64,000 nucleotides of DNA from a candidate division FCPU426 bacterium (GTDB taxonomy: Bacteria > Oederibacteriota > Muellerivitia > Muellerivitales > Muellerivitaceae), in contig CAWCKJ010000004.1 in assembly GCA_963796105.1 (NCBI GenBank), positions 1,056,001 to 1,120,000 on the forward strand, in the 5' to 3' direction. Numbering within the stretch: the first letter of the stretch is position 1; each line of letters begins with the position of its first letter. Below the pieces are notes generated by a model. It did not search any database. It was given only the letters and a program-made list of their open reading frames with translations, and was not told the origin of the DNA. Positions 26,109 to 56,610 of the stretch are shown piece by piece. A program made the position numbers and the translations under genes.

Positions 26109-26268
26109 GTTGTCTCCTTGAAAATTTTTCACCTTTTTTTATTTTCCGCGCTTGCCCAAAAATTTTTTGACAAACTTGGCGCCGGATCATTTTTAAAGGC
26201 GTCCGTCATATGGTTAAAAAAACCAGATGACGAATTTGCTCATTACATTCCCATGAGCGTGTCCTCTG

Positions 26269-38734: not shown

Positions 38735-39520
38735 ATGAGTGATCGAAAAGCCGACTATCACGAAACCATTCGGGACCCATTCACGCAAAAGGCTGATGAT
38801 TACGCCAGGATGATCTCCGGAAACGCCAGCGACCAGTCGCTGAGAATTCTTTTGGAGAGGCTTCCCATTTCCCGCGCGGACGCTGTCTTGGATGCGGCCT
38901 GCGGTCCCGGACTCTTGGCGGCCGCCCTCGCGGGAGTCGCGGGCCGCGTCATCGGAATCGACTTGACGCCCGAAATGATCTTGAAGGCCCGGGAACTCCA
39001 AGCCCAGAAGGGCTTGGCGAACCTCGAATGGGTGGTGGGGGACGCGACGAAACTGCCTTTTCAGGACGGCTGTTTCGAGTGGGTGGTGTCACGATTTTCA
39101 TTGCACCATTTCCAAAAACCCGTGGCCCTCGTAAAGGAAATGATGCGCGTCTTAAAACCCAACGGAGGACTTGCCGTCATTGACCCGGCGACGAAGGAAG
39201 AGAACAATGAGGCTTTCAACTTCATGGAAAAACTCCGCGATCCCTCCCATGTTAGGGCCCTGACGGTTTCCGAGCTTCGGGACCTGGGAAAAAAGATAAA
39301 ACTAAGGAACATCAGTCTGGATTTCTATGGCCTGGAGATGGAATTGGAGAGCCAATTAACGGCCTCCCGCTCACAACCGGGAAATATTGAAAAAATCCGT
39401 GAACTATTTAATGAAAACCTCCGATTCGATAAACTGGGGGTTCAGGCGAGGCTGGCGGGAGGATTGATCTATTTCAATTATCCCGTGGCTGTTTTAACGG
39501 GTTTCAAGGAAATTAAATAA
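38735..39520 (+). CDS. Class I SAM-dependent methyltransferase (UbiE-like)
   Basis: VLDAACGPG, GIDLT, GDATKLPF, RVLKPNG and RDPSH. Confidence 0.9.
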   Translation: MSDRKADYHETIRDPFTQKADDYARMISGNASDQSLRILLERLPISRADAVLDAACGPGLLAAALAGVAGRVIGIDLTPEMILKARELQAQKGLANLEWVVGDATKLPFQDGCFEWVVSRFSLHHFQKPVALVKEMMRVLKPNGGLAVIDPATKEENNEAFNFMEKLRDPSHVRALTVSELRDLGKKIKLRNISLDFYGLEMELESQLTASRSQPGNIEKIRELFNENLRFDKLGVQARLAGGLIYFNYPVAVLTGFKEIK

Positions 39521-39555
39521 ACCCTTTTGGATTTAAAGCATACGCGAGGTTATTC

Positions 39556-39777
39556 ATGGAAGGCCAGCCTTCAAGCGCGCAACCCGGAGCCAACCCGAAA
39601 CAGGAAATGAATATCGATATCTCAGCCCGCAAACCTGGGGAAAATCTCCTTTATACAGGACCCCATCTTTGCGTGACCTGCGCCGATGAAAACAGGATCG
39701 TGAACCGTTATTTCAAGGCGGGAGAGAAGGCCCCTGAATGCGACCAATGCGGCTCCCGCGCTCGATGGGAGCCTTGA
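39556..39777 (+). CDS. Small zinc-ribbon-like protein
   Basis: PGE...G...CVTC...GEKAPECDQC...W; GAGG RBS. Confidence 0.65.
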   Translation: MEGQPSSAQPGANPKQEMNIDISARKPGENLLYTGPHLCVTCADENRIVNRYFKAGEKAPECDQCGSRARWEP

Positions 39778-39931
39778 GAATGATATTGCTGGGGCCGTTA
39801 GGTTAAACGCCCTACTTATAATGGGCTGGCAAAGTTCCATTGGGGTTGCCAAACGCACCGCTTTTTGAAGATAATAACCAAGTTTTAAGTATTTAGATGT
39901 TTTGCCTATGATACGTTTTCAAAGGAATGGA

Positions 39932-40864
39932 ATGGCTCACGATTTCACCATAACTTTCCGGGGGGTCCGGGGAAGCATCCCGGTGCCCGGTCCGACCACG
40001 CTTAAAATCGGGGGCAATACCTCTTGCGTGCAAGTGAATGCCCTGGATCACACCATCTTCCTGGACGCCGGAACGGGCATCGTCAGCGCGGGCCAGCAAA
40101 TGGTGCGGAACTTTTTCGCCAACCGCGACAAGATGCGGCGATTAAACACCACCATCCTGATCTCCCACACCCACCACGACCATCTCATGGGGCTCCCCTT
40201 TTTCCCGCCCCTCTTTATTGGCGACTCTTCCTTGTCCATTTACGGACCCTCGAATTACGCCCCCGTCAACAGTCCGAATGGAATGAAATACACCCTGGAA
40301 ATGCTGATGGACTCCATGTTTTTCCCCATCGACCTGATGGAAACAGGCTCCATGAAGAGAATCGAGACCCTGAGGCCCTTTGACCAGATCCTCCTGGCGA
40401 AAGGTTCAGAGCCGGAATTGGCGAACCTCCAGACCGAGATCAAGACCACCTTCAAGGATAAGATCATCGTCAGCCAATACCGAGCCTACAACCACCCTAA
40501 GAACGGAACCTTGGTTTATAAGCTGCAATACGGGGGAAAATCAATCGTTTATGCCACTGACATCGAGGCTTACGCGGAAGGCGACCGCCGGCTCATTCAA
40601 TTCGCCCGGGGGGCGGATATGCTCATCCATGACGCCCAATACACCTTGGAGCAATACACCGGGCCCGTTCCCACCCAGGGATTCGGACACTCCACCGCGG
40701 AAATGGCCTGCCAGGTGGCGCGGGAGGCGGGTGTGAAGCAGCTGGTTCTTTACCACCATGATCCCAACCACGACGATGCGGCCGTTCTCCAGAAGGAAGA
40801 AAACGCCAAGAAGCTTTTTCCCAACACCTTGGCGGCTTTCGAGGGTTTGGTCCTGCTCGTTTGA
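39932..40864 (+). CDS. MBL-fold metallo-hydrolase
   Basis: GVRGSIP, GGNTSC, SHTHHDH, HP, HDAQY, GHS and HHDP. Confidence 0.92.
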   Translation: MAHDFTITFRGVRGSIPVPGPTTLKIGGNTSCVQVNALDHTIFLDAGTGIVSAGQQMVRNFFANRDKMRRLNTTILISHTHHDHLMGLPFFPPLFIGDSSLSIYGPSNYAPVNSPNGMKYTLEMLMDSMFFPIDLMETGSMKRIETLRPFDQILLAKGSEPELANLQTEIKTTFKDKIIVSQYRAYNHPKNGTLVYKLQYGGKSIVYATDIEAYAEGDRRLIQFARGADMLIHDAQYTLEQYTGPVPTQGFGHSTAEMACQVAREAGVKQLVLYHHDPNHDDAAVLQKEENAKKLFPNTLAAFEGLVLLV

Positions 40865-41001
40865 TACCGGGGCCGTTCAAATCCTGGTTTTTCCGAATCT
40901 GCCCCTCATTCTAATCCGCTTGTTTTTTAAATCAGGAAACCCTTCATTTATGCGTTGTTTTTAAGGCCGTTAAATAGGAATCAACAGGGATGAAAAACCG
41001 A

Positions 41002-41682
41002 TTAATTCGCCTTGAATCTTTTGATTTTGTTTCCGAGGTCGTTGAGTTCTTCCTCAGTTGGTTCCGGCGTTGGGGATTGCAAAACCTCCAGCTGGTTGAA
41101 AAAATCGAATAGAACCGACCAAAGCTCCTCTTTTGAGAATTTTTCAAGGTTCAGGAAATAACGGAGGTAGAGTTGAAAGCGCACGCTTGTTTCGTACAGG
41201 ACCGTAAAAGAAATTCCAGCCAAGTCGGCGCTGACCAGGGGAAAGGCCCGGAGGATCACTTCCACCTCGTCGAGGATCTTTTTCAAAAGGACGCGGATGT
41301 CCAAAGCTTGGATGGCGTCGTAATAAACCGTGTCAAAATGGTCATGCGTGAGCTCCGGGCGGATCAAGGCGTCGTACTTGCGGAAAGTTTCCTGGAAAGA
41401 CTTGCCCCCTTCCTTAATCTCCGACACTAAACCATCCAGGCGGGCCAGGTGGGAGATGAAATTGGTCCGGTCCAATTCCAGCGTGGAAGCCAGCTCGTTG
41501 ATATATTGGATGTATTCATAGGATCCCCGGGCGCATTTCAAGAGGGCTGGGGCCATTTCCGAGGCTGTTTCCGGCTGTGCGCCGCCCTTTTGGAGGCGGT
41601 TTTCCACCTGGCCCAGGAAATCCCCGCCGGGTTTCCAGCTTTTGAAGCTTTCCATTAATTGTTCGGCGGTGATTTCGTTCAT
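41002..41682 (-). CDS. Hypothetical helical protein
   Basis: About 226 aa ORF filling the interval; no family recognised. Confidence 0.65.
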   Translation of the reverse strand: MNEITAEQLMESFKSWKPGGDFLGQVENRLQKGGAQPETASEMAPALLKCARGSYEYIQYINELASTLELDRTNFISHLARLDGLVSEIKEGGKSFQETFRKYDALIRPELTHDHFDTVYYDAIQALDIRVLLKKILDEVEVILRAFPLVSADLAGISFTVLYETSVRFQLYLRYFLNLEKFSKEELWSVLFDFFNQLEVLQSPTPEPTEEELNDLGNKIKRFKAN

Positions 41683-41873
41683 AGCCACCACCTTATCACC
41701 AAATCGGTTTTAAGAAAACGCTTCTCTCCTGGAAAGAGCGGGGAGCGAAGGACAGGGTAGGGTTTCCGGGGGTAACTTCCGGTTTCGTAGACATCAACTT
41801 GGGCTTTGGGTAGACTACTCGCGCTCGAAGCGGGATGAATCAACCGCCAAAATTTAAATGTGGGGGAGGATAT

Positions 41874-42815
41874 ATGTCGTCACAACGTCCGAAAATCACA
41901 GTCGTGGGAGCCGGCAACGTTGGAGCTTCATGCGCCGCCTGGATGGCCGAGAGGGACCTGGGCGACATTGTCCTGCTGGATATTCCAGCCGCCAAGGACA
42001 TGCCCAAGGGCAAGGCTTTGGATCTTTTGCAGGTGGGCCCCATATCCGGCTATAACTCGCGCTTGACCGGGACCACCGATTACGCCGATACGGCCCAGTC
42101 GGATATCTGCGTCATCACAGCGGGCGTGCCCAGAAAGCCTGGGATGAGCCGGGAGGACCTCGTGGCGGTCAACCAGGGCATCGTGACCGAGGTGGCCAAG
42201 AAGCTTACCGAGATATCGCCTGACACCATCCTGATCGTGGTGACGAATCCGCTGGACACCATGTGCTACACGGCCCTCAAGGCCTCGGGGCTCCACAAAC
42301 ACCGGGTCTTGGGCCAGGCGGGGGTTTTGGACTCGGCCCGGATGAAGGCCTTTCTGGCGCAAGCCGCCGGCGTGGCCGTGGAAAGCGTAAATGCCGCCGT
42401 CATCGGGGGGCACGGCGACGAAATGGTTCCTTTAGCCCGTTACTCCACCATCGGGGGCGTCCCAATCTCCCATTTCCTGAAGCCCGAGCAGGTCACCGCC
42501 ATCATGGACCGCACGAGAAAAGGCGGAGGGGAACTCGTCAGCCTGCTGGGGGTCAGCGCATGGTACGCGCCGGGCGCCGCGGCTGGTTCCATGGTGGAAG
42601 CCATATTGCGGGACAAAAAATTAGTGGCTCCCTGCTCGGCCTACCTGGAGGGGGAATACGGCCTGAAAGACATGTTTTTCGGCGTTTACTGCGTCCTGGG
42701 CCGCAAGGGGCTGGAGAGAATCCTGGAGATCCCGCTGGATGAGGAGGAGAAGAAAATGGTCGAGAAATCGGCCTCCCTCATCCGCGACACCATGAAGGTG
42801 CTTAAGAATATTTAA
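41874..42815 (+). CDS. mdh: Malate dehydrogenase (LDH-like)
   Basis: GAGNVG, GKALD, PRKPGMSREDL (Arg specificity residue), NPLD, LDSAR and GGHGD. Confidence 0.95.
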   Translation: MSSQRPKITVVGAGNVGASCAAWMAERDLGDIVLLDIPAAKDMPKGKALDLLQVGPISGYNSRLTGTTDYADTAQSDICVITAGVPRKPGMSREDLVAVNQGIVTEVAKKLTEISPDTILIVVTNPLDTMCYTALKASGLHKHRVLGQAGVLDSARMKAFLAQAAGVAVESVNAAVIGGHGDEMVPLARYSTIGGVPISHFLKPEQVTAIMDRTRKGGGELVSLLGVSAWYAPGAAAGSMVEAILRDKKLVAPCSAYLEGEYGLKDMFFGVYCVLGRKGLERILEIPLDEEEKKMVEKSASLIRDTMKVLKNI

Positions 42816-42877
42816 AACGAATAATGAACAATAGGTTTTAATTTAACCCGTAAATTCAGGGATGAAATATTTTTTAT

Positions 42878-43270
42878 TTAGGAAATTTTCACGGAAAGGG
42901 CGGGGGACTGCTTGCCGAATCCCTCGCTCAAGGCTTTTTCCACGTTGGGGAAAAGCCGGACCCATTTGTTGAACTCGAGCATCTCGAAAGTGTCGTGGAT
43001 CTCGGTGGGCATGGCCGCCAGGAAGATATCCCCCCTCATCCGCCGCACATGGGCGTGAAAAACCAGCAGGGCCTTCCAAGCCTGCCCGCTGAAGTATTTC
43101 GCGCGCGAAAGATCCAGGATGATTTTTTTCGAGGTGGTTTTGTTGTAAACGGCCTGCAGGGCCTTGTCGAAATCCGGCATGGTGGGGGCGTAAACAAAGC
43201 CGGTCACCTTCAAGACGCCGACCCCGCCGAATTGCGAATGCTGATCGATCTCATAAGAAAAATTTTCCAC
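42878..43270 (-). CDS. STAS domain / anti-sigma factor antagonist-like protein
   Basis: LKVTGFV...IILDLS..KYFSGQAW...GDIFL...FEML...FPNVEKAL. Confidence 0.8.
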   Translation of the reverse strand: MENFSYEIDQHSQFGGVGVLKVTGFVYAPTMPDFDKALQAVYNKTTSKKIILDLSRAKYFSGQAWKALLVFHAHVRRMRGDIFLAAMPTEIHDTFEMLEFNKWVRLFPNVEKALSEGFGKQSPALSVKIS

Positions 43271-43588: not shown

Positions 43589-45697
43589 TTACTTTGGAAT
43601 GGCTAAAGATTCTGATTTTATAGTCAATTCATCCAACTTTTGGAGAAGCTGGGGCGGGGGTTGGTAGATCGAATCCCACTTGGCCGCCTCCAGTAGGGCC
43701 GTTTTCGCCTCATCGTAACGCCCCTGATTCCCCAAAACCTGCCCCAGGTTGTAATTCAAAAGGCCGTTGGCCCCGAAGCCCAAGGCCTTTTGGAAAGCCG
43801 GAAGGGCCAGGTTGTATTGCTTGTCCCAATAGTAATTGTTGGCGAGTTTCCCCCAGTAATAAAACTTGAGGAAAGGATCACCCTGGAAATCCGCTTCACG
43901 GTCCAACAAATAATGGATGGGTTTATCGAGGGGCTGGGTGAAGGGATGGTCCATGAGCAGGAAGTCCAGTTCCCGCAGGTTCCTGTCGGCTTTCGACCAG
44001 CTTTCCAGGGTTTTCCGGCCGGAAGGACTCAGGGTGATGAGGGCCTCAAGGCTGGAATCGCAGGGGGAAGGATCTTTCCATTCGATTAAGGAAGCGCCGG
44101 GGAACAAACGGGTTAAATGGGCCTTGCATCCGTTGTCCGCGATAACAGCGGCCCAGGAAGCCTTATGGGGGTCTAACAAAGGATTGGCCAGGGCGTTGAA
44201 GGAGTAGGTGCCCAAGTTCAAATAAACAGGAAGCCATTCATCCATGGAAAAATCCGAATAAACCAAGCCGGGACCAGAGGTTTGACTGAGTTTTTTAAGG
44301 TTCTCGTAAAGAGCGACCCTCGGATTCGTGTCCGAGAAATCCCGGTTGGCGACGGCCATCGATTTCGCAAGGGTGACTTGATCCAGGATCATCGAAATAA
44401 TAAAAACCGGAAGTATGAAGACAAACTTGGCGGGTCGTTCGGGAAGCCCGTCCAGGATGACTTCAAGCCCCAGGGCCATGGTGGCTATGACGAAGGGAAG
44501 AAGAGGGGCCAGGTGATAGCCATTAATATTATTGGCCAATAGGCAGGGCAAGAATAGGACGGCCGAGCTGACGGCGGTCCAATGCGCCATGGGAATTTTT
44601 CGGAGGCGCCACCATTCCGCGGTCCCCATGAAAAACAGGCTTACCAGAATCGGGTTCAAGAGACCGCCCCACCCGGAGTTGTATAAGAAATACCAGGGCT
44701 GGCCCGTCCAGAAAAGGTTGGTGAAAAGAAATGCGTTTTGCCAGTAGCGCCAATGGTAAGCCTCATCCCCCTTCTGATTGAGGGCGAATAGGATCTTGAT
44801 ATAAGCCCCGAAATTTTCACTCAAGGCCGCGAGCGCCAAGGGAAGAAGAGTGAGAAAGGCCGCGGCCAGGAAGAGAAAAAGGTCCCATTTCCGGCTTGGC
44901 CAGGAACGCCGGATAAACCAGCCGAGGGTGAGCAGGACGCACAGAGCGATCAAGGGCCATGCAAAGTAAGTGTAAAATCCTAAGCCCAGTAAAAAACCCA
45001 GGATGATCGAAAGCGCCGGCTGGCCACGCGAGGGACCGGTCTTTAAGAACTTGGCTAGAATCCAGGAAATCAGGGCCTGGCATAAAACCATCAGAACCGC
45101 GTTATGGGAAAAACGCCCGATGAATACCGGCCAAAAGGTGAGGCCCAAAAGCGCGAGGCATAAAAACGAGAAGGACTTGGAAAAATACAAGCGGAAGGCC
45201 AGGTAATAAAATACCGCGCTGAGAAAGGAAAGAATGGCGGGAACCAGCCAAAGATTCCGGAAAGAGACTCCCCCAAGCTTGAAAACAGAGGCCAACAGCC
45301 AGAGGTAAAGAGCCGGTAATTGGCTGGAGTAATAAAAAAACGGCCAGCCTCCATGGTTATTCAAGTGAATGGCGCTATAGGCGTTCACCATTTCGTCCAG
45401 GATAGGAAAAGTAAGAAAGGAATCCAGCTTGTAAAGGCGGATGCCAAGGGCTACCCCAAAGGTTAAAAAAATCCACCAGGCCGCGGGGGTAAAAATTTCA
45501 CGGGAGAAAACCGGTTGTTCCTGAGAGGAAATCGAAGGCCGGTTTTTAATGTAAGCCCAGCCCAAAAACAACAAGCCCAAGGAGCCCGCCAATAGCTTAA
45601 GGATCCCATCCAGCGGCGAATAGGCCAGGATGGCGTTAAGCGCTGTCAGAAGCGTGAAGAAGACGGCGGGCCTGGATAAAAGGGAGGCCAAGTTCAT
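43589..45697 (-). CDS. ArnT-like (GT-C) membrane glycosyltransferase with C-terminal TPRs
   Basis: IRLYKL...LDE...PALY, LGFYTYFAW, many TM segments, and TPR pattern YNLGQVLGNQGRYDEAK. Confidence 0.8.
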   Translation of the reverse strand: MNLASLLSRPAVFFTLLTALNAILAYSPLDGILKLLAGSLGLLFLGWAYIKNRPSISSQEQPVFSREIFTPAAWWIFLTFGVALGIRLYKLDSFLTFPILDEMVNAYSAIHLNNHGGWPFFYYSSQLPALYLWLLASVFKLGGVSFRNLWLVPAILSFLSAVFYYLAFRLYFSKSFSFLCLALLGLTFWPVFIGRFSHNAVLMVLCQALISWILAKFLKTGPSRGQPALSIILGFLLGLGFYTYFAWPLIALCVLLTLGWFIRRSWPSRKWDLFLFLAAAFLTLLPLALAALSENFGAYIKILFALNQKGDEAYHWRYWQNAFLFTNLFWTGQPWYFLYNSGWGGLLNPILVSLFFMGTAEWWRLRKIPMAHWTAVSSAVLFLPCLLANNINGYHLAPLLPFVIATMALGLEVILDGLPERPAKFVFILPVFIISMILDQVTLAKSMAVANRDFSDTNPRVALYENLKKLSQTSGPGLVYSDFSMDEWLPVYLNLGTYSFNALANPLLDPHKASWAAVIADNGCKAHLTRLFPGASLIEWKDPSPCDSSLEALITLSPSGRKTLESWSKADRNLRELDFLLMDHPFTQPLDKPIHYLLDREADFQGDPFLKFYYWGKLANNYYWDKQYNLALPAFQKALGFGANGLLNYNLGQVLGNQGRYDEAKTALLEAAKWDSIYQPPPQLLQKLDELTIKSESLAIPK

Positions 45698-45701
45698 CTA
45701 C

Positions 45702-47327
45702 TTACCGGCAAACGAAAAGGGTGGCGGACAAGGGGGGAAGGCTCATGTCGAATTGGTTGTCGGAAAGTTTCCCAATTTTTCCCGGCTTGATCTCCGGGGA
45801 GTGGGAATCAAATCCGTAACAGCTGTAGTCGGAATAGGCTGTTGTCGACTGGACCTTGAATTTGCCGTGGACCTCGTCCTTCTGGTTCTTATTGAGCACT
45901 AAAACCCAAAGGACTCCCGCTGACTTTGGATCAGTGGAGGCGTAAATCGAGGTCTGCGCGACATCTTCCGTGGCGGCCGAAACGGAGGTGCCGCCGAAGG
46001 CTGCTCCTTTCCCGTCGTAATTGCGGTAAATCTTGAAAGCGGCCCGGTTATAGGGTTTCAATTCCCCCCAATAGTTGGCCATGAAGACCAAATTTTTCCC
46101 AAAGATGCCCAGGACGTCCGCCTGGGCCAATCCCCCGGAAACATGGTTGCCTGCCCCGTAATCGTATTCGGTGAAGGAAAGTTTCGTGCCTGGATAACGG
46201 TTCTCGATCTTCTCCTTGATCCAGGGGATCAGGGTGATGGGCCGGCCCTTGGTGGAAGACTGGGTGATCCAGCTCTTCTCCACGTAGCCAGGGTCCCAAA
46301 GACTGCGGGGAGCCTGGAGCCTCGCTTCCACGCTTTCCGCGGAAGTGTCTCCCTCGGTGATTCGCTTTCCCCCCCCTTGGGCCTCGGGATACCAGTGGAG
46401 GTCCAAAACGTGCAGGAGGCGATTATGGTCCCTCTTTTCCAGGTAACGCATCTGGTCCAGGTAGAAATCCAAAAAACTCCCGAACTGCTGGTTGATGTCC
46501 GCCGCGTCGGGGGAATCCTGGAGATTAAGGAAAGCCTGCCAGCCGTAGCACACAGGCCCGAAAATCATGGCGGTGGGGTCCACTTTCAGGATGCCGAGGG
46601 CGGTTAATTCCGTGTTTTTCACCATTTCCCAGTAGCCGGTTTTCTTGGGATGGATGCGCGGGTGGGTGGAAGGCCAGAGGGCAGGCTCATTGTCCAGGTC
46701 GTAGAACCTCACGCCGCCCTCTAAGCCCCTCTTGTAGTTGGAGACCAGGAAATTCACGAACTCATCGTCATAGACGGCCGGAGCGTCCGGGTCCGGCGCC
46801 AGGGAGAAAGCCCTTTCCTTCCGGGGCAGAACCCTTTTCCAGCGCTTGGAGGGGGCGGTTTCCTTTTCGCTGACCTCGCCCTTCTTGTCGGAGGCCACAT
46901 AGCCCGCCATCTGAACCGTCACGAGGGATTCCACGCCGGCCTTCTGGTTGGCCTCCACGAAATGGCGCACGAACGCCCCAGGCTGGTCGCAGTCGGTGTA
47001 ATGGTGGTCGTCGCAAAGCCAGTTGTCGCTCACGTGGCGCCAGTCGTTTCCCGCGTTGGAGGCGTTGGTGACCCAGTTGTACCCGGTCATGCGGTTTCCG
47101 CCCAGGCGCCGCACGGTGGCATGGGTGTCCTGGGGGTCGGTGTCGTTCAAGCCGTAGATAAAGGGACTGATGGGCCCGATGACCTCCTCCGGCATCACCA
47201 GGAAGTTGATGTCCGCGGCCTTGGCCCCCGAAAGGGAAAGTCCCAAGGCGGCGAATAAGAACCATTGGATCATTCTACGATTGGGCAAGGAAGGCTCCTG
47301 GACAGGCTGGGATATGAAAGGACGCAT
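45702..47327 (-). CDS. Glycoside hydrolase family 44 (endoglucanase/xyloglucanase-like), secreted
   Basis: ISPFIYG, RRLGGNRMTGYNW, LDNEPALW, LDLHWYPE, FTEY and AQADVLGIFG. The ATG overlaps the upstream TGA (alternative start 47273). Confidence 0.9.
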   Translation of the reverse strand: MRPFISQPVQEPSLPNRRMIQWFLFAALGLSLSGAKAADINFLVMPEEVIGPISPFIYGLNDTDPQDTHATVRRLGGNRMTGYNWVTNASNAGNDWRHVSDNWLCDDHHYTDCDQPGAFVRHFVEANQKAGVESLVTVQMAGYVASDKKGEVSEKETAPSKRWKRVLPRKERAFSLAPDPDAPAVYDDEFVNFLVSNYKRGLEGGVRFYDLDNEPALWPSTHPRIHPKKTGYWEMVKNTELTALGILKVDPTAMIFGPVCYGWQAFLNLQDSPDAADINQQFGSFLDFYLDQMRYLEKRDHNRLLHVLDLHWYPEAQGGGKRITEGDTSAESVEARLQAPRSLWDPGYVEKSWITQSSTKGRPITLIPWIKEKIENRYPGTKLSFTEYDYGAGNHVSGGLAQADVLGIFGKNLVFMANYWGELKPYNRAAFKIYRNYDGKGAAFGGTSVSAATEDVAQTSIYASTDPKSAGVLWVLVLNKNQKDEVHGKFKVQSTTAYSDYSCYGFDSHSPEIKPGKIGKLSDNQFDMSLPPLSATLFVCR

Positions 47328-48742
47328 CAATAATAGCTTAAGGGAAGCCTTTCTCCCACCCAGTGGTAATTTTTTTCCTGGATGGCCCTCACGATGCGTC
47401 CCCGGTCCCGGTAGAGGGTGTAAACATCCCAGATCCGGACGGCGTAGGCTGCCTGGAAGATGAGCGCCGCTGCAAGGAAAACCTTCGCGAAATTCCTCCA
47501 GAAGGGGATATGGGCGAGGCGGCTCCAGCAGTAGAGCGAGAAAAGAAAGACCATGGGAAAGGTGCCGTCGTAATAAATGTGGGAGAGGGGCCACTTGATG
47601 GTGAACCAGAAGCTCGCCCAAACCATTAGGAAAGTGAACAAGGCCAGCTTACGGACGGCGGGCCAATCCCTCAAGCCGTGTTTCTTGAAAAACCACAGGA
47701 CAAAGAGCGCCATCGGCTGAATGAGCCCCACGACCCAAAGGAAAATACCGGGATAAAGAAGGAAGGGGGAACCCATCAGGAACTCCAACCGGGCATGGGT
47801 GCTATGGCCCGGCTGGAAGGAAGGGGGCCAAGCCCATCCGGCCCAATGGGGGCCGGAAGCCGTTCCCCAGGTGGTGTAACCGGGGGAGCCGGGCGGGTCC
47901 AGGAAGAAGGGCATCTCAAAACAAGCCCCCGAAAGCCAACGGCCGAGGATGGTAAAAAATTGCTTGAAGTTCTCCAGGCAAAAGAAAGTGATGTATCCAC
48001 CCCTCCCGGACGGGATGCCGCCGTATTTCAACAGGGCCGACAGGATCAGCGCGGCCATGGGCAGGCTTCCCAGGATGGTAAAGAGCAAGGCGGTTGGGAG
48101 GGCCGCTGGTTTTTTCCGCCATTGGAGGATAAGGGAAAGAATGAGAAAAGCCGCGAGGTACAACCAGGACATGTTCAACTGGGCCATCCAGAGGAGCCCG
48201 AAGCCCATCAGGGCGCAGCTCAGGCGCAGGGAGAAAATATTCAAGCTGAAGCCGGGAATGGACTCGAAAAAACCGACATAGAACAGGATGCAGCCGAAAA
48301 GGCACCAGGAGCGGGTGATCATGCCGGTGTTCTCATGGAGGGTCCAGGGCAAGAGCACGAGGGAAAAGTAAATAATCCAGGGGGATAGGTTTGGGACCCG
48401 TTTGGAGCAGTACCAGGCGAATAGGGCAATAGCCGCGAGGTTGATCAGGTTCAGGAAAATGAACGGGGATTCCGGGATGGGCCAAACCCGCAGGGGAAGG
48501 CTGACCATCAAGCCCATCAACGCCCCGGGGGTCTGGTTGTAGTGGGTGGTCTCTGCCCCTCCCAGGTCCGGGCCGAAATAGGGCCAGGTGCCGGTGCAGT
48601 AGCTTTTCAATCCCAAGAGGTAGGTTTGAAGCTGGTCCGAGGACCAGAAAGGGAGGGACAGCCCGAATCCCAAGCGGAAGAAGAAGGCGAAGAGAAGCGC
48701 CAGGATTATTTTTTGGTTGTGGGTCAAGATGCCTTCATCCAC
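47327..48742 (-). CDS. Multi-TM GT-C-like protein, paralogue 4 of 4
   Basis: DQLQTYLLGLK...WPYFGPDL...QTPGAL...PIPESP; ends GERLPLSYY. Confidence 0.75.
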   Translation of the reverse strand: MDEGILTHNQKIILALLFAFFFRLGFGLSLPFWSSDQLQTYLLGLKSYCTGTWPYFGPDLGGAETTHYNQTPGALMGLMVSLPLRVWPIPESPFIFLNLINLAAIALFAWYCSKRVPNLSPWIIYFSLVLLPWTLHENTGMITRSWCLFGCILFYVGFFESIPGFSLNIFSLRLSCALMGFGLLWMAQLNMSWLYLAAFLILSLILQWRKKPAALPTALLFTILGSLPMAALILSALLKYGGIPSGRGGYITFFCLENFKQFFTILGRWLSGACFEMPFFLDPPGSPGYTTWGTASGPHWAGWAWPPSFQPGHSTHARLEFLMGSPFLLYPGIFLWVVGLIQPMALFVLWFFKKHGLRDWPAVRKLALFTFLMVWASFWFTIKWPLSHIYYDGTFPMVFLFSLYCWSRLAHIPFWRNFAKVFLAAALIFQAAYAVRIWDVYTLYRDRGRIVRAIQEKNYHWVGERLPLSYY

Positions 48743-48763
48743 CTTTCGCCCTATCTCGCGGGA

Positions 48764-50119
48764 TTAATATTGGCTGCCGGCGCGTCTTTCACCAAGGATC
48801 CTGTAATCTTTTTCCGCGATCGCCTTTTGAACCAGGGGCCGGTTCAGGTAAAGGGACTGGACCCGCGACATTTCCACCAGGTATCCGGCTTGGAACCAGA
48901 GGCTGGCAACGAGGCATAAGACGCCAATTTTACGCCAGGAGTATTTCCGGGCAAGACCGGCCCAGGCATAAAAAGAATAAACAGCCAAAAGGGGCATCAG
49001 GATATAGAAGGAGGTGGCGGAGGTTCCTTTGGCGTTGAACCAGAAGGCGGCCCAGGCGAGGAGAAAACCGAAAAACACCGTACCAACCGCCGGCCTAGCC
49101 TCTGGGTGCCGGTTATCCTTGAGCCAGACGCCCCATCGGGCGGGAATCACCCGGAGTTTTATGTTGGCGCAAAGGTATAGGAGCAAGATCAAGGGTTGCA
49201 GCCAGCCAGCCAGGAGCAGAAAAACCGCGGGAAGGATCAGCCAGGGGGCGTTTTGGAGGAATAGAAGGCGCATATGAGTGTTCGCCCCCAGGTATTTGGG
49301 CATCTCAAAGGAGACGATGGAAAAATAACGGGCCAGGACCGTGAAGAAGGCCAGGAAATTATCCCGGTTAAATCCCACCGCCAGGCTCATTCCGCCCGAT
49401 TCCCGGCTCAGGCCATAATGAACCCAAGTGGGAACGAGAAATGCCAGGGGAAGAGCCGAGCCCAAGAGAAATCCCCCGATTTCCGAAAACCATTTTGAGT
49501 TTCCTTTCCGAAGCCTGAGGAAAAAAGCCAGTGCGATAAAGGGGGGCAGGAGAACCCATGAGAAATGAAACTGCATATCCCAGAAAAGCCCGAAACCCAT
49601 CAAAGCGAACGCGAAAGAAGGGGAGAGCCCCAAGACCGCGAGGCCCGGCGACGCCTCCAAGAAGCCGATGAAGAAGGGGACACTGCCCAACAGGAGGAAC
49701 GAGGTATTGATGGTATTGGCTGAAATATGGAGGTTCCAGGGAAGTAGGCACAGCCAAGTCAGGGTGAAGGCGAAGGGTATCTCCGGGATTCTCTTGGAGA
49801 CATACCAGGCCAGGAAACCCAGGGTGCCCATTGAAAGGAGGTTCAATAAAATGAGGGGGGCCTCAGGAATGGGGCAAAGGTGGAAAGGAAGCCCAATTAT
49901 TAGGCCTTCCAGGGCGCCAGGGATCTGGGACTCGAAATTTTTCTCCAGCCAGAACAAATCCGGGCCGAAATAAGGCCAGCTTCCGGTGGTATAGCATTTC
50001 AACCCGATGAGGTAGGTTTGAAGCTCGTCCACCGAGAAGAAAGGCTGGGAGAGCCCGAAGGCCAGCCGGAACAAGAACAGGAACAAAAACAAAAAAATAA
50101 GTTTTAGCTTGTTGGACAT
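48764..50119 (-). CDS. Multi-TM GT-C-like protein, paralogue 3 of 4
   Basis: DELQTYLIGLK...WPYFGPDL...QIPGALEGL...WDMQFHFSW; ends LGERRAGSQY. Confidence 0.75.
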   Translation of the reverse strand: MSNKLKLIFLFLFLFLFRLAFGLSQPFFSVDELQTYLIGLKCYTTGSWPYFGPDLFWLEKNFESQIPGALEGLIIGLPFHLCPIPEAPLILLNLLSMGTLGFLAWYVSKRIPEIPFAFTLTWLCLLPWNLHISANTINTSFLLLGSVPFFIGFLEASPGLAVLGLSPSFAFALMGFGLFWDMQFHFSWVLLPPFIALAFFLRLRKGNSKWFSEIGGFLLGSALPLAFLVPTWVHYGLSRESGGMSLAVGFNRDNFLAFFTVLARYFSIVSFEMPKYLGANTHMRLLFLQNAPWLILPAVFLLLAGWLQPLILLLYLCANIKLRVIPARWGVWLKDNRHPEARPAVGTVFFGFLLAWAAFWFNAKGTSATSFYILMPLLAVYSFYAWAGLARKYSWRKIGVLCLVASLWFQAGYLVEMSRVQSLYLNRPLVQKAIAEKDYRILGERRAGSQY

Positions 50120-51466
50120 TTAATACAAGCTCCCGGGACGGCGTTCCCCCAGCAAGTGGTAATTCTTATCCTGAATGGCCCTCACCGCGGTACCCCGGTT
50201 CAAGTAAAGGGACTGCCTGGGGAGGCGGTAAACGATCAATCCCAATTGGAAAAAAAGGCTGATGACCAGGCAAATCCTGCCGAAATTCCTCCAGGAAGCC
50301 TTTTCCGCCAATCGGTCCCAAACGTAAAAGGAGAAAATGGCCAACAGGGGGAAATAGACGAAATAGATATGGGCAACCGGCTCTTTCTGGGTGAACCAGA
50401 AGCTGACGTAAAGAAGAAGGAAAGCCCCCCAGGTCCAATGATAAACCGCTTGGGCACCCCGGGAAGCGGAAGTTCCCGCCTGTTTTTTAATGGCTCCCAT
50501 CAAGGGTTGAATCCATCCGAGGGCCAGGAGAATCAAGGGCTGGATCCAGCCCACACCAACCAGAAAAAGCCCAAAGGGAAATAACCAGGGAGCCTGATGG
50601 ACCAGAAAATCCCAGCGGTCGTGAAAATGATTCCCGATGAATTGGGGTATCTCGTAGCAGGGCAGGGAGAGATAACGGGCCAGGATCGTCCCGAAGTCGA
50701 GGAAATGGTCTTTATTGAAAAGCATGACGGTGCTTCCGCCCGCGAACACCTGGTTCCATCCATAACTCAATAGGGTGGGCAGGACCAGGGCCGCGGGCGG
50801 GATCGAGCCCAGGATGAAAAATAGAACGGCCCTGAAAGTCCCGCCCCATCCCGCCTTTCGGCCGTAGAAAAAAAACGCGGCAGGGACAAGGGGGGGAAGC
50901 AGGATCCAGGAAAAATGAAATTGCATGTCCCAAAAGAGCCCGAAACCAATCAAGGCGAAAGCCCAGGCGGGGTCCAGAAACCCGCCGGAAAGGGCCGGGA
51001 CGGTTTCCATCAGCCCGATGAAAAAAAGAACGCTTCCCATTAGCAGGTAGCTCGGGTTCAGGACCCAGGTGGATTGGTTCAAGGTCCAGGGGAGAAGGGA
51101 GGTCCAAGCGAAAATGAAAAGGAAGGGAATGTTCTTGAGCCGCCTGGAAAGGAAACAACTCAATAGAGCGATTGAGGAAAGGGAGAGCAGGTTCAAGAGG
51201 AGGAAGGGGGCCTCGGGAATGGCCAAGAGGAAAAAGGGCCCCCCCACCAGGAGAGCCTCCAGGGCCCCGGGAATTTGGGCCCGCACCGAGCCGAAAAAAA
51301 CCAGATCCGGGCCGAAAAAGGGCCAACCCCCGCCGCAGTACCACTTCAAACCGATCAGGAAGGTTTGCAGGTGGTCCTGGTCCATGAAGTCGCCGCTCAA
51401 GCCGAATGCCGAGCGGAAAAGGAACAGGAAGAGGAAAAGAAGGATGAATTTCATTCTAGCGGACAA
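50120..51466 (-). CDS. Multi-TM GT-C-like protein, paralogue 2 of 4
   Basis: DHLQTFLIGLK...WPFFGPDL...QIPGALE...WDMQFHFSW; ends LGERRPGSLY. Confidence 0.75.
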   Translation of the reverse strand: MSARMKFILLFLFLFLFRSAFGLSGDFMDQDHLQTFLIGLKWYCGGGWPFFGPDLVFFGSVRAQIPGALEALLVGGPFFLLAIPEAPFLLLNLLSLSSIALLSCFLSRRLKNIPFLFIFAWTSLLPWTLNQSTWVLNPSYLLMGSVLFFIGLMETVPALSGGFLDPAWAFALIGFGLFWDMQFHFSWILLPPLVPAAFFFYGRKAGWGGTFRAVLFFILGSIPPAALVLPTLLSYGWNQVFAGGSTVMLFNKDHFLDFGTILARYLSLPCYEIPQFIGNHFHDRWDFLVHQAPWLFPFGLFLVGVGWIQPLILLALGWIQPLMGAIKKQAGTSASRGAQAVYHWTWGAFLLLYVSFWFTQKEPVAHIYFVYFPLLAIFSFYVWDRLAEKASWRNFGRICLVISLFFQLGLIVYRLPRQSLYLNRGTAVRAIQDKNYHLLGERRPGSLY

Positions 51467-51511
51467 GGGGTTCCTTCCAAAAACAGGATCAGCGGCGGCC
51501 TCATTCGGCTC

Positions 51512-52819
51512 TCAATATAAGCTTCCGGCACGGCGCTCCCCAAGGGGGCGGTAATCCCTCTCTTGGATGGCCCTGAGGATGGGCGCGCGGGAAGGAAGCC
51601 AACATTGCCTGGGAGCCTCCTCCCAGGCCCAAGCGCCCTGGAAAAAAACCGAGGCGATCAGGACCAGGGCGACGCTGATACCCCAAAACCTCCATTTCCC
51701 AAAGGCGGACCAAACATAACAGGAATAAACCATGACCAAGGGGAAAAAAACAAAATAAATGTGGGTCATGGGCTCCTTGGTGGTGTACCAGAAACTCGCG
51801 TAAACCATCGCGAAAACCCCCAGCAGGAGAAGTTTCAGCTCCCTCCAGCCGGGGTTCACGCTTTTCCTCTTAAACCAGGCGAGGAACAGGATAACGGCCT
51901 GAAGGATGCCCAGCACCCACAAGAAAGCCCCGGGAAGGGCCAGATAGGGATGGCCTGTCAAAAACGAGAGGCGCTCCTGGGTTCCCCCGCCGATCCACCT
52001 GGGTACTTCGAAACAAGGGAGGGAAAGGAAACGCCCCAACAGGATATGCGGCTTCATGAAATTCACCTTGTTGAATGAAATGAGAAACCCGGACACGGTC
52101 CCAGATGATTCGAAACCATATTTCAAAAGGGTGGGAACCATGAATATAAAAGGGGGCAGGCCTCCCAGGATGAAAAAGAGAAGGGGCTTGAGATCCATTT
52201 GTTGTCTTAACTGGATGAGCCAGGAAAAAACCACCAGGGGCGCGAAATAGACCCAGGAAAAATGAAACTGCATGATCCAGAAGACCGCGAAACCCATAAA
52301 AAAGTTGGCCCAGGGTAATGAGACCCGGCCTGTGGAAATTCCAGGCATGGTTTCCAGGAATCCGATCGTGAAAATCACGGACGGAAGAAAAATATAGGAG
52401 GGATTGAGGACGCGGGTGGCTTCCTGGATGGACCAGGGCACCACCGCGATCCAAACGCAAAGCCAGGGGAAGGAGAGGGAAGGGATCCTTTTGCGGATAT
52501 ACCAGGCCAGAAGGAAAACCGCCAGGGTGGACATCAAATTAACGAGGACATAGGGGGACTCGGGAAAGGGGGCCAGCCGAAGAGGCAGGGCGATCAGGAG
52601 TCCTTCCAGGGCGCCGGGAATCTGGCTGTGGAAGCCGGGATTCTCGTTGCCCGCCAGGTCCGGACCGAAATAAGGCCAGGTCCCGGTCGTCAGGCACTTC
52701 AACCCGATCAGGTAGGTTTGGATCTCATCAATGGAGTCCCACCGGGAATTGAGCAGGCCGAACATGAGCCTGAAGAGGAAAATGGCCAAAAAAAGAAATA
52801 GAAGCCCGCGTTTACTCAT
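51512..52819 (-). CDS. Multi-TM GT-C-like protein, paralogue 1 of 4
   Basis: DEIQTYLIGLK...WPYFGPDL...QIPGALEGL...MQFHFSW; ends LGERRAGSLY. Confidence 0.75.
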   Translation of the reverse strand: MSKRGLLFLFLAIFLFRLMFGLLNSRWDSIDEIQTYLIGLKCLTTGTWPYFGPDLAGNENPGFHSQIPGALEGLLIALPLRLAPFPESPYVLVNLMSTLAVFLLAWYIRKRIPSLSFPWLCVWIAVVPWSIQEATRVLNPSYIFLPSVIFTIGFLETMPGISTGRVSLPWANFFMGFAVFWIMQFHFSWVYFAPLVVFSWLIQLRQQMDLKPLLFFILGGLPPFIFMVPTLLKYGFESSGTVSGFLISFNKVNFMKPHILLGRFLSLPCFEVPRWIGGGTQERLSFLTGHPYLALPGAFLWVLGILQAVILFLAWFKRKSVNPGWRELKLLLLGVFAMVYASFWYTTKEPMTHIYFVFFPLVMVYSCYVWSAFGKWRFWGISVALVLIASVFFQGAWAWEEAPRQCWLPSRAPILRAIQERDYRPLGERRAGSLY

Positions 52820-53358: not shown

Positions 53359-56300
53359 TTGACGCACTTTATCGCGGTGAATATCTTCCTTCCCATTCTT
53401 TTTGACGACGCGGGCAACGAGGACATCGAGCCCATTCTCGCCACCCAGTTTTTCATCATCGAGCAAAAATTCCAGGCCCTTACGGTCATCCACATGAAGC
53501 GCACCCCCAGGGGCCTCCTCGCGGTATTCGAGAACACCGATCCCCTTCCCGGCCTGTTGGAGATGCAATCCGAGTTCTCGAAATACGTGTGGAAAACATA
53601 CGGCAAGGCGACACTTCAACTGGCCGTGCACTCGGAGAAGCCGGGACAATGGTGGGATGATTTCAGGGGCCCCGAGTTCGACCATGTGTCGGCGCTATTG
53701 GCCGCGGCCAGGCTTGGGCAGATCCTCCTCACCGAGCAGGCGGCTTCCCAACTCGCCCCGCCCCCGGGGTATTTGTTCAAGGACCTGGGGGTCCATTCCT
53801 TGAACGACTTGTCGGAGCCGAAAACTCTTTATTCCCTCCGCCCGGCCGGTTCGGCCGTCTCCGAGGACCTGGCACCCCGCTCCCTCAAGTCCTATCCCCA
53901 GAACCTGCCTTCCCAGGCGACCCCCTTCTACGGCAGGGAGGAGGAATTGGCGGAAATCACCTCGTGTCTCCTGAATCCCACGACCCGTCTTTTGACCCTG
54001 GCGGGGCCGGGGGGATTCGGAAAAACCCGGTTGGGTTTGAAAGTGGCCTCCCAACTGGTGACCCATTTCCCGAACGGCGTTTATTTCGTGCCCCTGGCCC
54101 AATTGAGCACGGACAGCCACATGGTGACCAGCCTGGCCCACGCGGTGGGATTCACATTCACGGGCATGGAGGATTCCCAGAGGCAGTTGATCCAATTCCT
54201 CGCCGGCAAAAAAATGCTGATCCTTCTGGATAATTTCGAGCATATCCTGGACGGGGCGGTCTTGGTGGACGCCCTCCTGAAGGGGGCGCCGGGCTTGAAG
54301 GCCCTGGTGACAACCAGGGAAAAGCTCCGGCTGGAGGATGAAATTGTCATCGAGGTGAAGGGACTCTCCTATCCGATGGAGGAGCACGAGGGTGAGGCTG
54401 TCCGTTACAGCGCCGTGAGGCTTTTCCTGAGGAGCGCGAGGGCGGTCGCGGCCCCGGACTTCAACCCCTCCCCTGAGGAATTGGTCCAAGTGGCCAGGAT
54501 CAGCCGTTTCCTGGAGGGAATGCCGCTGGGGATCGAACTGGCCTCGGCCTGGGTCAAGTCCCTCCCGGTTTCCGAGATCGCGGCCAAGATTTCCACCAAC
54601 CGGGATTTCGTGGCGGCGGAAATGCCGTACCTGCCGGCCCGTCACCAGAGCTTGAGGGCGATATTCGAGTATTCCTGGGACCTGCTCTCCGCCGTCCAGA
54701 GAAGGGCCTTGAAAACCGCCTCGGTATTCAAGGGGGGGTTCACCCTGGAGGCGGCCGCCCATGTGGGAGCCGTTCCCCTCTCGGTCTGGCCCCAATTGAC
54801 CGAGAAATACCTCGTCACCGAGAAGTCCAAGGACCATTACGAGCTGCATGACCTGGTGAGGTATTACGCCAAGGAAAAACTTTTCGAGAACCCGGTGGAA
54901 AAGGAACAGGTCCTGGACGCGCATTGCGAATACCTGGCCGTGACGCTCCGCCAGAAGGAAAAGGAACTCCAGGGGCCGAGGCGGGGGAAGGCGATGGAAT
55001 TCCTGCTGTCCCAGATGGGGAACATCCGGGATGGCTGGAGAAGGGCGGTGGAAAAAGGGCAGGAAAACCGGATCGAGGATTACCTGGACTGCCTTTTTGA
55101 TATTTACCAGGATAAGGGATGGTCCCAGGAGGGTTCCGGGGTCTTCGAGGAGGCGGGCAAGCAACTTTTAGAAAAGGCAGGGGGCCGCGCAAATGGAAAA
55201 TCCGCCCTGTTGATAGGAAAGATCTATTCCCGGTGGGCGTCCCTTCTCCAGCAAATGGGAAGAATGAATGAGGCCTTGATGGTTTTCCAGGGAAGCCTCA
55301 AATTCTTGAAGCCGACGAAGAGTTTGAAACAAGTGGCGTTTTGTTATAACGGGTTGGGCGTGACCCTCACCGACCTGGCCCAGGATAAGAAGGCCAGGAA
55401 TTATTTCAACAAGGCCCTGAGGATTTATCAAAAGGCCAAGGATCCTTCCGGGACTGCCAGGTTGTACAACAACCTGGGGCATAACATCATGAGGGCCGGG
55501 AATTTCCGGCAGGCCCGGATCTTGATTCAGAAGGCGCTGACCTATTTCGAGAGTGGCGGCGACCTGAAAGGCACGGCGGACTCCTATATCCTCCTAGGAA
55601 CCATTCAACACGACATGGGGGACAATTCCTCGGCTCGGGCGTTGTTCCAAAAGGCCTTGGGCGCTTACGTGGAATGCGACAACCGGCGGGGCATGGCCTG
55701 GGCCTTTACGAATATGGGGGAAGTGGCGGAGGCCGTGGGGGATTTCAACGGCGCCAAGGAGATGTACCAGGAGGGCCTCGGACTCCATGAGGGTTTGGGG
55801 GACCGGAAGGCCATGGGATGGTCCAAGGGCCTGCTGGCCTGGATCAATTGGGCCATCGGGGATTACGCGAAGGCCAAGCAATACGCCAAGTCGGGGTTTG
55901 AGGACTTCCGGTTCGTGAAAGACGTCAGGGGTGAGGCTTGGGCGCTGGAACTACAGGGAAACCTGGCGGTCAGCGAGGGGGATTTCAAGGGCGCCCGGCA
56001 ATTCTACAACGAGTGCCATGACCTGGTGAAAACCAAGGAAATCCTTTCCATGGGGAAAGCTTGGCACCTGTACCATCTGGGGGATCTTTTGAGCGCCGAG
56101 GGCAAACTTGACGCGGCCTATCCTTATCTCAAGAAATCCCTGGCGATGTTCCAGACCATCGGCGAGAACATCGGGATCATTACCGCCTTGACCCAGTTGG
56201 CGGAGGTGGAGTACGAGAAAGGAATGATGGGGAAAGCCAGGAACCGCCTGGTTAAAACCTTCGAGAAAGCCCTCGCCACCCATTCGCTCCCCCACTTGAC

Positions 56301-56610
56301 GGACGCCATGGTGGTGCTCGCCCAATGGCTGATCGCCCAAAACATCAATTCCAACGCTTTCGCCTACCTGACCCTGGCCGTGAGCCATCCGACCTGCCGG
56401 CGCCAGACGAAGGATCGGGCGGCGAAGTACCTGACCCACCTGCAATACCGCCTGCCCCCAGGGGAGGTGGAGAAAATCTTCAGGTGGTCCAAGACCGTCC
56501 AACTGGAGGAAGTCGCCCAAAACTGGTTGACCGAGCAAGAGAAAAAACCAAAGGGAAAGGGCGTGAAAACCCGCGCGAAGAAAACCCGGAATAAAGCCAA
56601 GAAACGCTGA
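53359..56610 (+). CDS. STAND NTPase (NB-ARC/AfsR-like) with a degenerate cyclase-like N-terminus and a TPR C-terminus
   Basis: NLP...FYGREEE, GPGGFGKTRL, LLDNFEH, TTRE, GMPLGIELA, HDLVR, then many TPRs. Confidence 0.88.
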   Translation: MTHFIAVNIFLPILFDDAGNEDIEPILATQFFIIEQKFQALTVIHMKRTPRGLLAVFENTDPLPGLLEMQSEFSKYVWKTYGKATLQLAVHSEKPGQWWDDFRGPEFDHVSALLAAARLGQILLTEQAASQLAPPPGYLFKDLGVHSLNDLSEPKTLYSLRPAGSAVSEDLAPRSLKSYPQNLPSQATPFYGREEELAEITSCLLNPTTRLLTLAGPGGFGKTRLGLKVASQLVTHFPNGVYFVPLAQLSTDSHMVTSLAHAVGFTFTGMEDSQRQLIQFLAGKKMLILLDNFEHILDGAVLVDALLKGAPGLKALVTTREKLRLEDEIVIEVKGLSYPMEEHEGEAVRYSAVRLFLRSARAVAAPDFNPSPEELVQVARISRFLEGMPLGIELASAWVKSLPVSEIAAKISTNRDFVAAEMPYLPARHQSLRAIFEYSWDLLSAVQRRALKTASVFKGGFTLEAAAHVGAVPLSVWPQLTEKYLVTEKSKDHYELHDLVRYYAKEKLFENPVEKEQVLDAHCEYLAVTLRQKEKELQGPRRGKAMEFLLSQMGNIRDGWRRAVEKGQENRIEDYLDCLFDIYQDKGWSQEGSGVFEEAGKQLLEKAGGRANGKSALLIGKIYSRWASLLQQMGRMNEALMVFQGSLKFLKPTKSLKQVAFCYNGLGVTLTDLAQDKKARNYFNKALRIYQKAKDPSGTARLYNNLGHNIMRAGNFRQARILIQKALTYFESGGDLKGTADSYILLGTIQHDMGDNSSARALFQKALGAYVECDNRRGMAWAFTNMGEVAEAVGDFNGAKEMYQEGLGLHEGLGDRKAMGWSKGLLAWINWAIGDYAKAKQYAKSGFEDFRFVKDVRGEAWALELQGNLAVSEGDFKGARQFYNECHDLVKTKEILSMGKAWHLYHLGDLLSAEGKLDAAYPYLKKSLAMFQTIGENIGIITALTQLAEVEYEKGMMGKARNRLVKTFEKALATHSLPHLTDAMVVLAQWLIAQNINSNAFAYLTLAVSHPTCRRQTKDRAAKYLTHLQYRLPPGEVEKIFRWSKTVQLEEVAQNWLTEQEKKPKGKGVKTRAKKTRNKAKKR

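Follow-up and report, generated by a model that had tools for sequence, protein, structure and literature searches.

Which glycan is built or altered by an array of four membrane proteins encoded directly upstream of a glycanase? The question is raised by positions 43589 to 52819 of a 64,000-nucleotide stretch of DNA (the window) from a candidate division FCPU426 bacterium, whose genome we call G000. An earlier note on this DNA had described six open reading frames (ORFs) here, all of which we find where it placed them, all on the minus strand: four paralogues resembling GT-C glycosyltransferases, a GH44 glycanase and an ArnT-like protein with a TPR, together proposed as a line of extracytoplasmic glycan assembly and editing. 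The paralogues, A to D, belong to an unnamed GT-C family, here called family X, which has expanded by tandem duplication in this lineage. Their genomic neighbours suggest that they may modify lipopolysaccharide (LPS), and the GH44 gene is likely a co-transcribed passenger of the array. The six genes are as follows (substitutions in the numbering of paralogue A; TM1, first transmembrane helix).

51512..52819, minus strand: paralogue A, 435 residues; family X clade I; predicted GT-C fold; D31-E32 after TM1
50120..51466, minus strand: paralogue B, 448 residues; family X clade II; D31 kept; His at position 32
48764..50119, minus strand: paralogue C, 451 residues; family X clade II; D31-E32 kept; P350T, H353T
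47327..48742, minus strand: paralogue D, 471 residues; family X clade III; loop insertion; D31 kept; N139T, Y142W, H186N
45702..47288, minus strand: GH44 endo-beta-1,4-glucanase/xyloglucanase-like protein, 528 residues; signal peptide and 504-residue mature part; both catalytic glutamate motifs
43589..45697, minus strand: gene T, ArnT-like (PMT_2) membrane protein, 702 residues; one TPR stretch

A predicted GT-C fold in an unnamed protein family

The four paralogues share 40.1-49.4% pairwise identity. Their own profile recovers them from the G000 ORF set at E values of about 1e-216 to 1e-218, and three further copies at 1e-137 to 1e-174, bringing the genome total to seven; the paralogy is therefore far beyond chance. 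All the shared motifs listed in the earlier note are present in the four-way alignment, but one was misspelt: 'MxQ' is true of D alone, and A to C have W-x-M-Q.

None of this is reflected in the protein family libraries. A to D have no match above cut-off in Pfam or NCBIfam, and only one below it (UPF0242, E 0.0045). Among 86 aligned family X members there is again no Pfam match above cut-off, and the four weak matches each occur in one member. Profile searches of PDB sequences returned 0 and 5 matches, none below E 0.97. At E 0.001 the family profile finds 483 representatives (50% identity) among 1.84 billion sequences, and among the best 120 of 438 homologues the only name given is 'hypothetical protein'. 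The earlier note recognised no described system combining GH44 with a paralogue set of this kind; the libraries tested (Pfam and NCBIfam) hold no named family for the paralogues. Literature listings, including those on FCPU426 glycoside hydrolases and glycosyltransferases, showed no paper on family X or on a GT-C-GH44 operon, with subscription journals thinly covered.

The fold was identified from a structure prediction. The AlphaFold2 model of paralogue A (predicted local distance difference test score, pLDDT, 95.2) has ArnT (5f15) as its top Foldseek match, at E 6e-4. In a VIA-align comparison with 48,161 chains, ranks 1-20 are taken by 17 GT-C glycosyltransferases (Z 8-22.5) and three glycosylphosphatidylinositol (GPI)-transamidase chains, and Z falls to 3.9 at rank 21. 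The best match is ALG12 (Z 22.5, 325 residues aligned, root-mean-square deviation (rmsd) 3.9); ArnT scores Z 19.6 (361 residues, rmsd 4.2) and Pmt1-Pmt2 Z 16.7. The GT-C likeness that had been proposed from sequence motifs is thus recovered by structural comparison. So is the acidic residue expected after TM1: D31 is present in all four paralogues and in 80 of the 81 family X rows with a letter at this position, and it aligns with the DE motif of the PMT_2 family to which gene T belongs (hhalign probability 70.7, E 4e-5). Model and alignment together show a GT-C fold with a conserved aspartate. The fold alone is not proof of activity, because three of the top 20 matches are GPI-transamidase chains, which we take to be non-transferases. 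From the fold and established GT-C chemistry, family X would transfer sugars from a polyprenyl-phosphate-linked donor.

Among GT-C enzymes of known structure, ArnT from Cupriavidus metallidurans (GT83; PDB 5F15/5EZM) resembles family X in having the fold over nearly the whole chain and an acidic residue after TM1, at 8-15% identity in structural alignments. Unlike ArnT, however, family X has no match to PMT_2 or PMT (PF13231/PF02366) in any of the 86 members at E 0.01, and the window's paralogues have neither a C-terminal periplasmic domain nor an adjoining arn operon. Judged by this Pfam test, the family falls outside GT83 and GT39.

We scanned 99 genomes of the phylum for family X (150 of the 170 matches listed). 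Matches occur in 28 of the 30 other genomes of the same bacterial family, with 1-9 per genome; outside the bacterial family only 4 of 68 genomes match, three of them weakly. G058 (97% complete) and G060 have no match. A FastTree tree of 119 rows, with fragments of less than 400 residues left out, resolves three well-supported clades (support 99-100): A belongs to clade I, B and C to clade II, and D to clade III. The array upstream of GH44 varies between relatives from one copy (in G068) to five, and usually runs clade I then clade II. Paralogue D is not present in G051, a genome of the same genus as G000. Family X is a compact GT-C family missed by Pfam and NCBIfam, and its presence in cultured Chitinophaga (see below) makes it testable.

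LPS gene context and competing explanations

One G000 copy of family X lies in an ADP-heptose/3-deoxy-D-manno-oct-2-ulosonic acid (Kdo) locus of LPS-core genes, msbA-gmhB-rfaE-GT9-gmhA-kdsB-kdsA. These names are inferred from gene order and Pfam domains (MsbA-type ABC transporter, HAD phosphatase, PfkB kinases, GT9, SIS isomerase, cytidylyltransferase, DAHP-family synthase). An X gene occupies this locus in 26 of the 29 X-bearing genomes of the bacterial family (21 of 30 loci in one comparison, plus five more from a neighbourhood comparison) and is missing from it in G047, G056 and G065; the same locus in G043, from the same order, has no X copy. This may be the oldest X site, because in most genomes the orthologue there belongs to the clade nearest the distant homologues, a placement that depends on rooting with distant sequences.

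Other copies are found inside other LPS operons, co-directional with the LPS genes. In six genomes a clade II copy lies between GT9 and ilvE in the lpxB-kdtA-lpxK-GT9 operon; G000's own operon has no X copy. A clade I copy occupies another gap of this operon in G070, and another follows a Kdo hydroxylase-GT9 pair in G066. In G072 a GT9/GT2/GT4 cluster contains a sister of clade III on a long branch. If G070 and G066 are taken together as a single site, LPS-type sites make up 4 of the 15 distinct X sites. Of all gene junctions in G000, 0.9-1.7% fall no more than 1-3 genes away from one of 20 LPS marker genes. Against this background, 4 of 15 has a binomial P of about 1e-4 or less, and of 0.027 at a background of 8%.

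A second line of evidence on the acceptor comes from long family X members in Bacteroidota, which end in a C-terminal beta-sandwich. CBM_4_9 matched in three of eight members tested (E 1e-4 to 5e-3, under the cut-off). The model of the domain (pLDDT 93.1) matches the carbohydrate-binding modules (CBMs) CBM16, CBM22, CBM61 and CBM4, together with toxin domains of the same fold (E about 1e-5, TM 0.4-0.5). GT136 of Citrobacter youngae, which like GtrABC belongs to the three-component periplasmic glycosylation systems, is, according to an excerpt of its description, also a GT-C protein with an aspartate after TM1, and carries a C-terminal CBM for its polysaccharide acceptor (PMC11127046). Because an apparent CBM-fold domain is found on the Bacteroidota members as on GT136, the analogy favours a glycan as the acceptor of family X. 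The resemblance to the three-component systems does not extend to the locus: no donor synthase or flippase is found in the X locus or its conserved neighbourhood, and G000 has only two UbiA matches, in what we read as haem and menaquinone-type contexts.

Taken together, we see about an even chance that family X consists of periplasm-facing GT-C enzymes that decorate the LPS core in an Rgt-like manner and were expanded by tandem duplication, with a putative donor and acceptor as follows. Established GT-C chemistry uses a polyprenyl-phosphate sugar as donor and an aspartate as base. Short GT2 proteins encoded elsewhere in the genome would load sugars onto polyprenyl phosphate; G000 has 22 GT2 matches, several in frames of 237-265 residues, and 12 GT9 matches. 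A putative flippase would turn the polyprenyl-phosphate sugars outward, and each paralogue, with D31 as the base, would then transfer one onto lipid A or the LPS core. LPS is the acceptor suggested by gene context. The copies may differ in the sugar they add or in the site they modify, working in parallel or sequentially, as suggested by variation between clades at conserved positions (such as 32 and 136-142).

A described parallel is a set of ArnT-like proteins, the Rgt proteins. In excerpts of three papers, Rhizobium RgtA-D and RgtF, with RgtE, are described as transferring galacturonosyl residues to LPS core Kdo and lipid A, RgtA and RgtB acting on Kdo, RgtD and RgtF on lipid A, and RgtE making the donor (PMC4402001, PMC9393093, PMC7663294). 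As far as these excerpts go, the likeness is one of related transferases acting at different LPS positions with a polyprenyl-phosphate donor from a separate gene. Family X differs in its lineage, in having no PMT_2 match and in its array being flanked by GH44. If LPS modification is the correct reading, family X would join ArnT, Rgt, Gtr and GT136 as a periplasmic LPS-tailoring class, and an uncultured lineage would vary its envelope by duplicating and relocating GT-C genes.

A number of observations weigh against LPS as the acceptor. At the ADP-heptose/Kdo locus, X and the LPS genes are encoded on opposite strands, and a single insertion accounts for all 26 occurrences of X there. The list of 15 sites behind the binomial estimate is post hoc and incomplete, with flanks for most of the 150 listed of 170 matches. 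The array in the window has no LPS neighbour. None of 25 neighbour clusters (each of at least four distant loci; 14 scanned with Pfam, the rest by reading) is an LPS-core cluster. The GtrA-type flippase (PF04138) has no match in G000, which is 96.8% complete. The genome offers a large competing pool of acceptors in 167 Pro/Thr-rich ORFs with about 58,700 residues in such stretches. Family X is dispensable in its bacterial family, since G058 has no match. Finally, the GT-C genes of this lineage may cluster for other reasons, because genes of the T family are also found at LPS loci and beside family X.

Gene T itself combines a PMT_2 domain (E 8e-7) with a single TPR stretch (residues 648-676), unlike the BcsC-type scaffolds of exopolysaccharide (EPS) operons, which have large TPR regions. 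We rejected T as a scaffold of the operon, given its one short TPR stretch and its adjacency to GH44 in only 2 of 30 genomes of the bacterial family, G000 and G051; synthase-dependent EPS systems would be expected to conserve such a gene. The T family matches 30 times in G000 and from 2 to 24 times per genome in 30 relatives. T thus appears to be a genus-specific addition from another expanded GT-C family, outside any conserved unit, and the six-gene operon of the earlier note does not hold as a unit. PMT_2 matches number 50 in G000 and 15 to at least 33 in every genome of the bacterial family; all 99 phylum genomes have at least two, and the phylum is GT-C-rich. G000 contains a tandem run of another GT-C family (C4:918814-932248), and tandem GT-C runs are a background feature of the lineage.

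Two rival explanations draw on this background. The paralogues might extend O-glycans on Pro/Thr-rich linkers of secreted proteins after PMT-like priming, much as ALG- or Aft-type GT-C enzymes do, which we consider unlikely. The Pro/Thr-rich pool and the 50 PMT_2 matches would suit such a pathway, as would the structural ranking, with the elongating enzyme ALG12 at the top and Pmt1/2/4 at ranks 3-4, and the T-family genes that adjoin family X in G000, G051, G049 and G052. O-glycan extension leaves unexplained, however, why X genes were repeatedly placed in lpxB-kdtA-lpxK-GT9 and Kdo hydroxylase operons. G058 and G060 have 33 and 31 PMT_2 matches among those listed, yet no family X, and A to D have no soluble domain beyond short loops. 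We judge it quite unlikely that birth-and-death duplication in a GT-C-rich genome has left mostly redundant copies that share a single ancestral activity and form no ordered pathway. Copy number fits this (one to five upstream of GH44, 0-9 matches in total per genome), the tandem run on C4 offers a precedent, and C and D have lost residues conserved elsewhere. On the other hand, the three clades are ancient and strongly supported, D31 and an intact frame are retained in every copy, and the pairing of clades I and II, present in most arrays, recurs at the LPS locus of G050, G048 and G049.

The earlier note had also named the Pro/Thr-rich proteins at 24537 and 57552 as possible acceptors, but nothing ties either to the array. 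The ORF at 57552-58391 encodes an outer-membrane beta-barrel (PF13505, under the cut-off) with a short Pro/Thr linker; that at 24537-26132 has no Pfam match and was read as a porin-type barrel with a short Ala/Pro/Thr stretch. The 167 Pro/Thr-rich ORFs of G000 are possible O-glycosylation targets for the PMT_2/TPR family.

The GH44 gene and its link to the array

The GH44 domain (PF12891, E 9e-60) aligns with Cel44C and Cel44A over about 490-500 residues, at E 9e-145 (Cel44C) to 3e-132. We take Cel44C to be the Paenibacillus enzyme (PDB 2YIH/2YKK) and Cel44A to be that of PDB 2E0P. Both catalytic glutamates are kept, as the earlier note had seen: NEP (E201, acid/base) and TEY (E374, nucleophile) align with the Cel44C motifs. 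Unlike Cel44C and Cel44A, the window's GH44 is a stand-alone catalytic module with a signal peptide, encoded co-directionally behind GT-C genes; no extra module or sorting tail was found. A GH44 paralogue on contig C6 does have a sorting tail, its type assigned by reading. A further paralogue, 705 residues long and extended at its N-terminus, branches within the orthologues (G000:C10:45386-48708, L004) and is followed by a 145-residue fragment matching the GH44 C-terminus.

Two further features belong to the locus.

47295..47299, minus strand: AGGAG, resembling a ribosome-binding site, 6 nucleotides before TTG 47288, the likely GH44 start
53359..56610, plus strand: NB-ARC/TPR (STAND-type) gene, 1083 residues; divergent upstream neighbour of the array

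The spacings given in the earlier note (45, 0, 21 and 4 bp) agree with the ORF coordinates. The TGATG overlap it described between D and GH44 is present in the DNA but likely unused: GH44 probably starts at TTG 47288, because of the AGGAG 6 nucleotides upstream and because the N-terminus so defined agrees with the signal peptide found in the G051 orthologue. The true gap between D and GH44 is then probably 38 bp, without translational coupling. A scan for promoters and terminators gave 7 and 25 sites, compared with 5.4 and 21.9 in shuffled sequences.

Linkage of the array to GH44, which the earlier note had proposed to check by synteny, is not confined to G000. An X gene lies directly upstream in 24 of the 30 genomes of the bacterial family with a GH44 orthologue (G061 being counted as adjacent from its list of matches); of the remaining six, three are cut by contig ends, two have no X match and in one the genes are not adjacent. 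The X-GH44 junction is retained even though 7 of 23 assessable cases lack the block downstream of GH44, which fits co-transcription. The link goes back to one evolutionary event, because the three GH44s without an upstream X gene form a single branch (support 89/99) and because in G058, which has no X gene, GH44 directly adjoins the divergent STAND gene. FastTree places the X-less GH44s outside all the others; an IQ-TREE analysis of 19 rows leaves the root open (AU test, p 0.395), so that one gain and one loss are both possible. Beyond the bacterial family a general link was rejected. GH44 is near family X in 1 of 80 distant loci, L089 from Acidobacteriota, where the two genes stand side by side and divergent. 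In this locus's own family, 17 of 151 genomes have X; two of the 17 have GH44, adjacent in one and on another contig in the other, and 15 have no GH44 match.

GH44 is likely a co-transcribed passenger of the array. The simplest reading of the gene is a role in feeding: it would be a periplasmic or secreted beta-1,4-glucanase that shares the array's transcript.

The earlier note had gone further and proposed that array and GH44 form one extracytoplasmic beta-1,4-glucan line, with GH44 trimming the product as BcsZ and PslG do. We think this very unlikely, although some evidence speaks for it. The 24 of 30 adjacencies, the junction that outlasts the loss of the downstream block and the unrelated locus L089 can all be read as functional linkage; the CBM-fold domain of some homologues resembles CBM16, CBM22 and CBM4; and GH44 scores 237 bits with the model of the Myxococcus xanthus GH44 protein EpsB (NF041873), far below the cut-off of 1250. 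EpsB, important for EPS according to an excerpt of PMC7484181, is a precedent for a glycanase encoded in an EPS locus. Like the EPS operons of BcsZ, PslG and EpsB, the locus has a glycanase gene co-directional with glycosyltransferase-like genes. Unlike them, it contains no synthase or polymerase, flippase, co-polymerase or export gene. Nor does the rest of G000 supply the missing parts: BcsB (PF03170) has no match, the 11 GT2_3 (PF13641) matches lie in frames of at most 427 residues, none in the locus, so that there is no long synthase, and the sole Poly_export gene is on another contig. In addition, the junction traces to the single event described above, the link is nearly absent from distant loci and from the Acidobacteriota X genomes, and GH44 is close to ordinary plant-glucan hydrolases, as its match to Cel44C illustrates. 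By the tests made, the locus is neither a Bcs/Psl-type nor a three-component operon, and the proposed beta-glucan assembly and editing line was not borne out.

A related proposal, in which array and GH44 are a functional module, seems to us a long shot. Pmt1-Pmt2 and EmbA-EmbB are heterodimeric GT-C pairs, and paralogues of clades I and II, perhaps as such a heterodimer, would here work outside the cytoplasm and without cellulose synthase, building beta-1,4-glucan side chains on LPS or Pro/Thr stalk proteins or grafting them there, with GH44 trimming or supplying the chains. If true, it would be a synthase-free route to surface beta-glucan via a new GT-C family. The glycanase-linked assembly line, seemingly the categorically new part, is the weaker part.

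Distant relatives and neighbouring genes

A scan of species genomes with an alignment of distant members gave 219 distant relatives of family X, of which the best 80 were taken further; all counts of distant loci rest on these 80. Their titles include Bacteroidota (among them the cultured Chitinophaga), Acidobacteriota, Gemmatimonadota, Bdellovibrionales, one Pseudomonadota, unnamed bacteria and two 'Eubacteriales'. The 'Eubacteriales' label may be wrong, as one of these records (L074) carries MlaD and looks diderm. Family X is single-copy in the distant loci; two apparent exceptions, L066 and L111, were rejected, each being a single gene in pieces.

A distant sister family sharing the DE, W-P-x-x-G and Q-x-H-x-S motifs of family X (hhalign probability 91.6) was found at L188:7476-8720 and L049:7956-9326. 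It adjoins family X genes in G059 and, in two split frames, in G044, and has no match in G000. A second C-terminal extension of about 120 residues, read as Ig-like, is present in some GC-rich family X members (L115, P0008, P0012, P0017 and P0023), with no Pfam match in the one member tested.

Several other neighbourhoods recur. In G047, G062 and G055 (L158, L193, L194) family X follows mlaEFD-like genes and is flanked by radA and ispD; in both 'Eubacteriales' records (L061, L074) it lies behind ispF. In Bacteroidales loci (L096, L076 and related ones) it adjoins a membrane sulfatase-domain gene (9 of 80 loci) and a gene for a 700-residue TPR protein (8 of 80). In two Acidobacteriota loci (L126:8289-10025 and L128:8070-9884) it follows an ArnT-like PMT_2 gene, with stop and start overlapping.

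Around the array itself, a lipoprotein with a Pro/Thr linker is encoded behind GH44 in six relatives. The STAND-type gene is a conserved divergent neighbour (22 loci) and travels with the array when the array moves. In G000 and G051 the STAND-X-GH44 block adjoins the mdh and acn region (38735-43270 in the window). In other genomes (L155, L173, L174, L184, L185) this region holds different X copies, which suggests that the block has relocated between X sites.

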